A stretch of 33,904 nt of DNA from a virus (taxonomy: Duplodnaviria > Heunggongvirae > Uroviricota > Caudoviricetes). Of this stretch, positions 11,011 through 12,805 are shown piece by piece. The notes below the pieces were generated by a model. That model was not told where the DNA came from. It saw nothing but the letters and a program-made list of their open reading frames with translations, and did no database searches. How positions within the stretch are numbered: position 1 is the first letter of the stretch; each line of letters begins with the position of its first letter. The stretch spans positions 1-33,904 of IMG/VR virus record IMGVR_UViG_2541047875_000010; one strand, written 5' to 3'. Made by a program: the position numbers and the translations under genes.

Positions 11011-11808
11011 ATGAATAATCTGATGGTTATTGATGGTATTGAAGTTCGTCGTGATGCTTATGGGCGTTACAGCCTGAACGATCTTCACAGGGCTGCCGGT
11101 TCTCTGGATAAGCATAAGCCTGCATTCTGGCTCCGCAATGAGCAAACTGAACATTTAATAAGCGAGTTGCAGATTTGCAACTCGGTCAATATAGAGCCAG
11201 TTAACGTTATTCGTGGCGGAAATAACCAGGGGACGTATGTCTGCAAAGAACTGGTGTATGCCTATGCAATGTGGATCAGTCCGTCATTCCATCTGAAGGT
11301 GATCCGTACTTTCGATATGGTAACCAGCGCACCGGAAAAATTATCCGGGCAGGCTGCTGACAAGATGCAGGCTGGTGTGATTCTGCTGGACTTTATGCGC
11401 CGGGAGTTAAACCTGTCTAACTCTTCAGTGCTTGGTGCCTGTCAGAAACTCCAGGAGGCTGTTGGCTTACCGAATCTGGCACCGCGCTATGCCATTGATG
11501 CTCCTGCTGACGCGCCTGATGGCTCAAGTCGCCCTACGCTGTCGCTGAGTGCACTGCTGAAACAGTATGGTATCCGCCTTACGGCTAATCAGGCATATCA
11601 CCAGATGGCGAAGCTGGGGATCGTTGAACAACGCGAACGATACAGCCGTACCGCGATTAACAACATCAAAAAATTCTGGTCGCTGACAGCGAAAGGCTGC
11701 ATGTTCGGCAAGAACATCACCAGTCCCGCAAATCCGCGCGAGACGCAGCCGCATTTCTTCGAATCCCGATTCCCTGAGCTGTTAAAGCTGCTCGATACCG
11801 TTCATTGA
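11011..11808 (+). CDS. KilA-N domain antirepressor-like protein
   Basis: N-terminal KilA-N-like region (IDGIEVRRDAYGRYSLNDLHRAAG...WLRNEQTEHL...YVCKELVYAYAMWISPSFHLKVI) with a C-terminal Ant-like region; RBS GAGGAG upstream. Confidence 0.65.
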   Translation: MNNLMVIDGIEVRRDAYGRYSLNDLHRAAGSLDKHKPAFWLRNEQTEHLISELQICNSVNIEPVNVIRGGNNQGTYVCKELVYAYAMWISPSFHLKVIRTFDMVTSAPEKLSGQAADKMQAGVILLDFMRRELNLSNSSVLGACQKLQEAVGLPNLAPRYAIDAPADAPDGSSRPTLSLSALLKQYGIRLTANQAYHQMAKLGIVEQRERYSRTAINNIKKFWSLTAKGCMFGKNITSPANPRETQPHFFESRFPELLKLLDTVH

Positions 11809-11809
11809 G

Positions 11810-12805
11810 GTGACTGTGAGAGCACTACTGACCCCTGAAATTGCCCCGCGTATGGGGATCGTATTGTTCAGACCTGGTTCAGAGCTGATGCCCCTGTTTA
11901 TGCAGGGGCGTGTCCTGCTGGAGCCTGAGCCGGAACGTTATTCATCTTTCGCCAGCGGTGCCGTTCCGGCGGCATCACAACCGCTGGCGGATGATCCTGC
12001 CGTTCGGGCCGTGTTCCGCAATGAGGCAGTGATCCGTCGTGCTGGTGGCGTGGAATGTCTTGAAAGCTGGTTACTTCGTGAAAAAGGCTGCCAGTGGCCT
12101 CATTCCGACTGGCACAGCGAGAACATGACAACAATGCGACACGCGCCGGGCGCAATCCGTCTGTGCTGGCACTGCGATAACCAGCTGCGCGATCAGTTCA
12201 CGGAACGGCTGGAATCAATGGCAACGGATAACTGTGCCCGCTGGGTGTTGTCTGTTGTGCGTCGGGATCTCGGTTTTGATGATAGTCACGTTGTGACAAT
12301 GCCGGAACTGTGCTGGTGGCTGATTCGTAATGACCTGGCGGATGCCTTACCGGAAAGTGCAGCCCGTAAGGCACTGAGATTACCAAAGCCTGTTGTGCCG
12401 TCTGTCACCCGGGAAAGTGACCTTGTGCCTTCGGTTCCTGCCACCAGCATCATCCAGGATAAGGCAAAAAAGGTGCTGGCGCTGAAAGTGGATCCGGAGT
12501 CGCCGGAGTCTTTTATGTTACGCCCAAAACGTCGCCGCTGGGTTAATGAAAAGTACACGCGCTGGGTTAAGACGCAGCCGTGCGCATGTTGTGGAAAGCC
12601 TGCTGATGATCCCCACCACCTGATAGGTCACGGTCAGGGTGGAATGGCTACAAAAGCGCATGACCTCTTTGTGTTGCCTTTGTGCAGAAAGCATCACGAC
12701 GAGCTGCATGCGGATACCGTGGCATTTGAAGAGAAGTATGGCTCCCAGCTGGAGCTGATATTTCGTTTTATCGATCGTGCGCTGGCAATAGGCGTGCTGG
12801 CCTGA
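11810..12805 (+). CDS. DUF968-domain protein (putative HNH-like nuclease, NinG-position)
   Basis: C-terminal Cys/His cluster QPCACCGKPADDPHHLIGHGQGG...LCRKHHDELH typical of DUF968; apparent GTG start at 11810. Confidence 0.6.
   Translation: MTVRALLTPEIAPRMGIVLFRPGSELMPLFMQGRVLLEPEPERYSSFASGAVPAASQPLADDPAVRAVFRNEAVIRRAGGVECLESWLLREKGCQWPHSDWHSENMTTMRHAPGAIRLCWHCDNQLRDQFTERLESMATDNCARWVLSVVRRDLGFDDSHVVTMPELCWWLIRNDLADALPESAARKALRLPKPVVPSVTRESDLVPSVPATSIIQDKAKKVLALKVDPESPESFMLRPKRRRWVNEKYTRWVKTQPCACCGKPADDPHHLIGHGQGGMATKAHDLFVLPLCRKHHDELHADTVAFEEKYGSQLELIFRFIDRALAIGVLA

Follow-up and report, generated by a model that had tools for sequence, protein, structure and literature searches.

Do two adjacent genes in the nin-like region of a prophage, one for a KilA-N domain protein and one for a DUF968 protein, form a functional unit, or do they only share an operon? 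The question was raised by a preliminary description of a 33,904-nucleotide (nt) window, i.e., the whole stretch analyzed (positions 1 to 33,904 of the IMG/VR record IMGVR_UViG_2541047875_000010), in which the pair was proposed to serve in prophage-prophage conflict or DNA processing. The window is a lambdoid prophage that is near-identical to one located beside zur in E. coli FDAARGOS_1267. The reading that we favor, to which as a whole we give about an even chance, is that of two co-transcribed, independent delayed-early accessory genes encoding a DNA-binding KilA-N protein and an HNH nuclease. The gene pair itself is ordinary, and its annotation and family classification are already known. 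The observations of the preliminary description were confirmed, while its interpretation was supported only in part.

Both open reading frames (ORFs) were present on the plus strand as described (11011-11808 and 11810-12805). The DUF968 gene very probably starts not at position 11810 but at GTG 11816, which lies two codons downstream of the in-frame GTG at 11810. This start is favored because thousands of database homologues are 329 amino acids (aa) long, because the Prokaryotic Genome Annotation Pipeline (PGAP) places it there too in a genome of 99.9% identity, because the PHROG profile opens at residue 3 of the longer ORF, and because a GAGG Shine-Dalgarno sequence sits 5 nt before 11816. 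The gap to the KilA-N gene is therefore 7 nt, so that the reported adjacency stands and only the start is corrected. In comparisons with orthologues from Citrobacter, Leclercia, Enterobacter, Erwinia, Pantoea and Serratia, the ratio of nonsynonymous to synonymous substitution rates (dN/dS) was 0.07-0.17 for the KilA-N gene and 0.08-0.24 for the DUF968 gene, values that are approximate since dS is close to saturation in several pairs. The motif residues of both proteins are conserved among their homologues. Both genes are under purifying selection and intact, and the possibility that they are inactive remnants was not borne out.

The first gene was correctly assigned to the KilA-N family. Its product matches PF04383 at aa 7-105 (E=2e-26; 92.4 bits, the cutoff being 23.8; profile positions 5-105 of 107) as well as PHROG 129, a family labeled 'transcriptional regulator' (E=1e-128); it has the APSES-like DNA-binding fold, and PGAP names it 'KilA-N domain-containing protein' in the 99.9% identical genome. 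The AlphaFold2 (AF2) model, with a mean predicted local distance difference test score (pLDDT) of 70, contains a low-confidence linker, two helices and a compact alpha/beta domain at aa ~176-264. The sole hypervariable stretch, aa ~30-75 (11098-11235), lies within the DNA-binding domain and shows substitutions and insertions of up to ~35 residues between near-invariant flanks; perhaps this segment determines specificity or is exchanged in mosaic fashion.

The designation of this protein as antirepressor-like was not supported. Pfam searches with the full protein (E<=0.01) gave no ANT/KilAC domain, and aa 106-265 searched separately at E<=10 matched no model, including ANT/KilAC (PF03374). Comparison of the C-terminal domain by hhalign with the ANT domains of neighbors that share its slot returned a probability of 0.1 from shallow alignments of low power (Neff, the effective number of sequences, ~1.5), and an ANT relationship was rejected at the sensitivity used. 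Neither a Bro-N nor a Rha domain was found, and the C-terminal domain matched no described family by Pfam or hhalign. A PDB sequence search with the protein gave nothing significant, and NCBIfam has no family for either product of the pair. Among defense-system models in PADLOC, aa 67-104 weakly match the candidate system PDC-S22 (E=3.8e-6, 38 residues); there was no other match for the KilA-N protein and none for the DUF968 protein. Judged by its domains, the KilA-N protein is best described as one that binds DNA; antirepressor activity is neither implied by a KilA-N domain nor backed by any result.

The second gene had been described as encoding a DUF968 protein with a Cys/His cluster of the HNH type, which the searches confirmed. 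The protein covers the whole PF06147 model (profile positions 2-171 of 171; E=6.6e-81), with 270.8 bits where the cutoff is 27.8. It also matches PHROG 96 'HNH endonuclease' (E=1e-176) and, marginally, HNHc_6 (PF16784; 27.5 bits against a cutoff of 26.6, E=2.7e-6, aa 251-308), a profile also matched by 16 of 28 diverse relatives. Like that of the KilA-N match, these E-values lie well outside what chance would give. At E<=1e-3 the family has 2,746 cluster representatives, and at E<=1e-30 it has 100. The AF2 model (mean pLDDT 66) falls into three parts, an N-terminal domain, a predicted disordered linker whose conserved basic end reads RPKRRRW, and a C-terminal domain. The latter adopts a beta-beta-alpha metal fold that contains both a CxxC...CxxH zinc site and catalytic His residues, and its HNH motif reads C256-x2-C259, D264-D265-P-H267-H268, K280-x-H282-D283 and C290-R-K-H293-H294-x3-H298. 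This finger most resembles that of P1 Ref, and its motif layout is that of PhiNM1 Gp16.

Within the N-terminal domain, homologues down to 26% identity all keep C92 and C117, and nearly all keep Q93, W118 and D121. The conserved signatures 'CQ' and 'LCWHxDN' (here 'CQ...LCWHCDN') suggest a structural zinc site formed by C92, H96/H100, C117 and C120. No Pfam model was found for aa 1-159 even at E<=10, and a Foldseek search of the model against the PDB gave nothing at E<=0.001, leaving the N-terminal domain without a structural match; PDB searches with the sequence and profile were likewise not significant (best YbcO, E=0.18). A stand-alone counterpart of this domain is PHROG 11007 (134 aa). Alignment of the N-terminal domain with the protein's own HNH domain by hhalign paired their Cys/His motifs without significance (E=0.34), so that an internal duplication is an idea only. 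The RecA_dep_nuc profile (PF16786) did not match the protein, and no NinB/Orf-like N-terminal domain was found by Pfam or structure search. A terminase-associated HNH protein of the HK97 gp74 type was also considered and rejected: between the DUF968 gene and the small terminase gene (18689-19234), ~5.9 kb further downstream, lie Q and the lysis module.

As to whether the pair is a unit, the nin-like location upstream of Q was confirmed, with RusA preceding and Q following the two genes. The rightward early operon runs in the order HTH_36 replication-type, PerC-like, LexA-N, RusA, KilA-N, DUF968 and Q, with junctions of -4, -1, -4, +19, +7 and +17 nt. Tight spacing is common to the whole operon and is therefore no mark of a special partnership of KilA-N and DUF968. 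The co-expression deduced earlier from their spacing is accordingly retained as co-transcription, which close spacing supports, but not as a property of the pair. A promoter and terminator scan of the operon found none convincing inside it, promoter-like sites being no commoner than in shuffled sequences. One such site, at 10992-11019, was ruled out for the KilA-N gene, as its -10 element falls inside the start region of that gene.

Among close relatives, with DUF968 proteins 98-99% identical, the KilA-N gene lies upstream in 76 of 79 evaluable IMG/VR loci. The IMG/VR scan gave only copies at this level of identity and is weak on linkage beyond them; such linkage says little, because the whole module could be inherited together. 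A scan of one genome per species covered 80 loci with DUF968 identities of 44-99%. Here, the direct upstream neighbor was a protein with a Rha- or ORF6N-type N-terminal domain plus ANT in 25 of 78 loci, RusA in 19 and a KilA-N protein in 11, the remainder being methylases, LexA-N, PerC and other proteins. An 'antirepressor-like' DNA-binding protein thus directly precedes DUF968 in ~46% of loci, with interchangeable domains. DUF968 clades barely follow the class of their upstream neighbor, the mean DUF968 identity being 55.2% within and 53.8% between neighbor classes (permutation p~0.02). In loci with both a KilA-N and a DUF968 gene, the divergence of the one correlates with that of the other (r=0.93, n=10), as expected of linked genes that track host lineages. 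The downstream neighbor is far steadier: a Q antiterminator directly follows DUF968 in ~68 of 74 loci, drawn from three families (PF06530 in 46, PF03589 in 18 and PF06323 in 4), and in Vibrio phage Her the DUF968 homologue is the last gene of the early operon. The KilA-N and DUF968 proteins are probably co-expressed yet independent in action, and nothing in these results shows a function of the pair or an antirepressor role.

We propose the following scenario. The two genes would be the last delayed-early genes of the nin-like region, transcribed from the early rightward promoter together with the replication, PerC-like, LexA-N-like and RusA genes. From the gene order and the lack of a detected promoter or terminator, we infer that they are expressed after induction or infection and not in the lysogen. 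The KilA-N protein would fill an interchangeable 'Roi/Ant-like' slot of lambdoid nin regions and bind DNA. The DUF968 protein, with its predicted N-terminal zinc-binding domain, disordered basic linker and intact His-Me (HNH) finger, is most likely a zinc-dependent HNH nuclease or nickase, probably acting on recombination or replication intermediates. It would nick or cut branched, D-loop or recombinase-bound DNA and in this way serve, alongside RusA, repair or a phage replication that depends on recombination; RecA may be a partner, as for Ref and Gp16. The function is probably a non-essential, accessory one. A recombination or repair nuclease has been proposed earlier for DUF968 (Jablonska et al. 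2017, PMC5714182), and proteins in which DUF968 is fused to Erf, Rad52 or RusA have been noted (Curtis et al. 2014, PMC4118853). Two observations are left over: a recombination model explains neither the constant position of DUF968 before late activators nor the existence of a catalytically degenerate clade in P1.

The alternative that survives best, which we still regard as unlikely, is host takeover in the manner of PhiNM1 Gp16: the DUF968 protein would nick host DNA, engage RecA early, halt host replication and bias the phage towards lysis, the KilA-N protein being an unrelated regulator. The HNHc_6-type motif layout is the same as in Gp16, an early HNHc_6-class protein that nicks DNA, binds RecA and needs its zinc site (PMC12817073); early Gp16 also inhibits host growth and raises the efficiency of plating ~10-fold. 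Ref likewise needs RecA. However, the N-terminal domains differ, that of Gp16 being NinB-like, and the enterobacterial DUF968 architecture is but a distant relative of the Gram-positive one. Moreover, knock-down of pdcB, the DUF968 homologue of P1, has little effect (efficiency of plating 0.68).

The two observations noted above raise the possibility that DUF968 is tied to the switch from early to late gene expression. By binding DNA or nucleoprotein, for example, it would modulate how the late activator is expressed or acts, while its nuclease activity would be secondary, or absent from some clades. We consider such a role quite improbable, and we give equally little credence to its stricter form, in which the protein is primarily a zinc-finger DNA- or nucleoprotein-binding factor and not a recombination nuclease. 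The idea rests on the free exchange of the upstream neighbor, on the position of DUF968 directly before late activators of four Pfam families (the three Q families and P1 Lpa) or, in Her, at the end of the early operon, and on the P1 clade of PdcB, in which the catalytic histidines are gone but both zinc sites persist, as does the N-terminal domain. Yet the position at the operon end may merely mirror conserved lambdoid gene order and the boundaries of modular exchange, lambda and many other Q-bearing phages have no DUF968, pdcB is non-essential whereas lpa is essential, and no regulatory domain was detected in the DUF968 protein.

The conflict module of the preliminary description, in which a KilA-N antirepressor acts on repressors of heteroimmune prophages and the DUF968 nuclease on rival phage DNA, is in our view decidedly unlikely. 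In its favor are the ~46% of species-level loci with an antirepressor-like gene before DUF968, the Ant and Roi genes found in the equivalent pre-Q position of Stx phages (PMC3430580), and weak PHROG anti-repressor matches (phrog_2127, E=1e-7; phrog_63, E=1.5e-4). These matches are, however, confined to the shared DNA-binding KilA-N domain, and the C-terminal domain has no profile similarity to ANT. Characterized antirepressors, such as P22 ant and those of the Gifsy prophages, typically have a separate regulated promoter, whereas the KilA-N gene lies inside the delayed-early operon with no promoter signal of its own. The upstream neighbor of DUF968 is freely exchanged, and no positive evidence for an antirepressor or conflict role was obtained. 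Finally, a lysogeny-expressed defense against superinfection, with the KilA-N protein acting like the prophage abortive-infection protein BstA, which contains a KilA-N domain and whose gene lies downstream of cI, the repressor gene, and is expressed in lysogeny (PMC8585504), and DUF968 as a possible effector nuclease, is very improbable and was rejected: the weak PDC-S22 match speaks for it but is limited to KilA-N-domain residues, while the KilA-N gene lies in the nin operon, at a distance of ~3.4 kb from that of the repressor (6956-7582, minus strand), and the C-terminal domains of BstA and the KilA-N protein were unrelated by every search run.

Table 1. Coordinates of the gene pair, its domains and surrounding features (positions in the window unless another record is named)
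Feature	Position	Strand	Evidence or remark
KilA-N domain protein gene	11011-11808	+	265 aa, stop TGA 11806-11808
KilA-N (APSES-like) DNA-binding domain, aa 7-105	11029-11325	+	
KilA-N protein C-terminal region, aa 112-265	11344-11805	+	two helices, then compact alpha/beta domain; highly conserved
GAGG Shine-Dalgarno of DUF968 gene	11807-11810	+	overlaps KilA-N stop codon; read from sequence
DUF968/HNHc_6 protein gene	11816-12805	+	329 aa from GTG 11816
DUF968 N-terminal domain, aa 1-185	11816-12370	+	pLDDT ~70-88 for aa 60-180
Predicted disordered linker, aa 186-243	12371-12544	+	pLDDT <50; conserved basic stretch PESFMLRPKRRRW at its end, with invariant K238
His-Me (HNH) finger domain, aa 244-329	12545-12802	+	C-terminal beta-beta-alpha, pLDDT 80-90
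PerC-family transcriptional activator homologue	9785-10279	+	PF06069 E=1e-9; weak ANR_neg_reg match
LexA N-terminal DNA-binding domain protein, 108 aa	10279-10605	+	PF01726 E=2.7e-18
RusA Holliday-junction resolvase gene	10602-10991	+	Pfam RusA E=1.3e-14, PHROG 34 E=4e-57
Q antiterminator gene	12823-13191	+	PF06530 Phage_antitermQ E=6.2e-52; PGAP 'antiterminator Q family protein'
STnc100 (Rfam small RNA family), full-length match	13963-14165	+	129 bits vs gathering score 47
tRNA gene, anticodon CAT	14269-14344	+	ARAGORN Met; PGAP tRNA-Ile in near-identical genome
94-aa ORF	16637-16921	-	by position, iss gene of FDAARGOS_1267 prophage
P1 PdcB	4001-5044 of L162 = 82422-83465 of OP279344.1		DUF968 homologue upstream of lpa

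Several other features of the prophage are listed in Table 1. The PerC-like gene overlaps its neighbors by 4 nt and 1 nt. Between it and RusA lies the gene of the LexA-N protein, named 'LexA repressor' by PGAP, which covers positions 1-91 of 203 of TIGR00498 with a score under the model cutoff and has no S24 autocleavage domain; such a protein could bind SOS boxes yet resist RecA*-dependent cleavage. The start of RusA, the gene directly 5' of KilA-N, overlaps the LexA-N stop by 4 nt. The Q gene has alternative TTG starts at 12808 and 12820 and is followed by the STnc100 match, the tRNA gene, lysis genes and lambda-like terminase and head genes. STnc100 lies inside the 1.4-kb gap between Q and lysis, in which one would expect the region of the late promoter and terminator, and the tRNA gene is positioned where Stx phages have tRNAs upstream of toxin genes. 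In the near-identical prophage, iss is annotated as an increased serum survival lipoprotein, Bor-like.

The 2.6-kb stretch from RusA through KilA-N and DUF968 to Q is present in 2,079 of 5,426 complete E. coli genomes (at least 80% coverage), in which PGAP labels the two products 'KilA-N domain-containing protein' and 'DUF968 domain-containing protein', and also in the isolated phages cdtI, SfII, SfIV, mEp460 and Kati and in Stx2a and Stx2c phages. The pair is a routine, annotated part of a prophage module that is very common in E. coli, Shigella and Salmonella and is found in Stx2- and Cdt-converting phages too. DUF968/YdfU/PdcB is among the most widespread lambdoid accessory proteins of putative function. 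[quoted passage not shown]

Compared with known systems, the KilA-N protein belongs with the PF04383 family, which includes the N-terminal domain of P1 KilA and is APSES-related. It occupies the same slot before Q as Roi and Ant of Stx phages and differs in having no ANT/KilAC, Bro-N or Rha domain.

For the DUF968 protein, P1 Ref (PF16786, PDB 3plw), a RecA-dependent HNH endonuclease, belongs to a different Pfam family and has no structured N-terminal zinc domain, whereas the DUF968 protein has a predicted one. The motif of S. aureus PhiNM1 Gp16 (C145/C148, H157, C181-R-E-H184-H185-x3-H189) has identical spacing, with a His nine residues after the C-x2-C pair in either protein, and both are HNHc_6-class products of early phage genes; however, the NinB/Orf-like N-terminal domain of Gp16 is unrelated to the predicted zinc domain, and host phylum and genome context differ. 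P1 PdcB is a full-length two-domain homologue (26% identity, E=4e-41; Pfam DUF968 E=3.6e-50), and its gene lies directly upstream of that of the late-promoter activator Lpa as DUF968 does of Q, although P1 is not lambdoid. PdcB has lost the HNH histidines (HITPY for DDPHH, CQSCQRDIE for CRKHHDELH) while keeping the zinc cysteines, and is probably inactive as a nuclease. P1 carries both PdcB and Ref, an active HNH nuclease of related fold. YbcO of DLP12/phage 82 (DUF1364, PDB 3g27) consists of one 96-aa HNH domain, with neither the N-terminal domain nor the linker; it has been assigned, like DUF968, to His-Me finger group 7 (Jablonska et al. 2017, PMC5714182). The closest correspondence is with the DUF968 family of YdfU from the E. 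coli Qin prophage, whose typical neighbors are RusA, Q and an 'antirepressor protein' (Jablonska et al. 2017, PMC5714182). The present protein shares this prophage setting and its RusA, Q and antirepressor-like neighbors, has 99% identical counterparts annotated in mEp460, SfII, SfIV, cdtI and Stx2 phages, and is a typical member of the family with no substantial difference from it.
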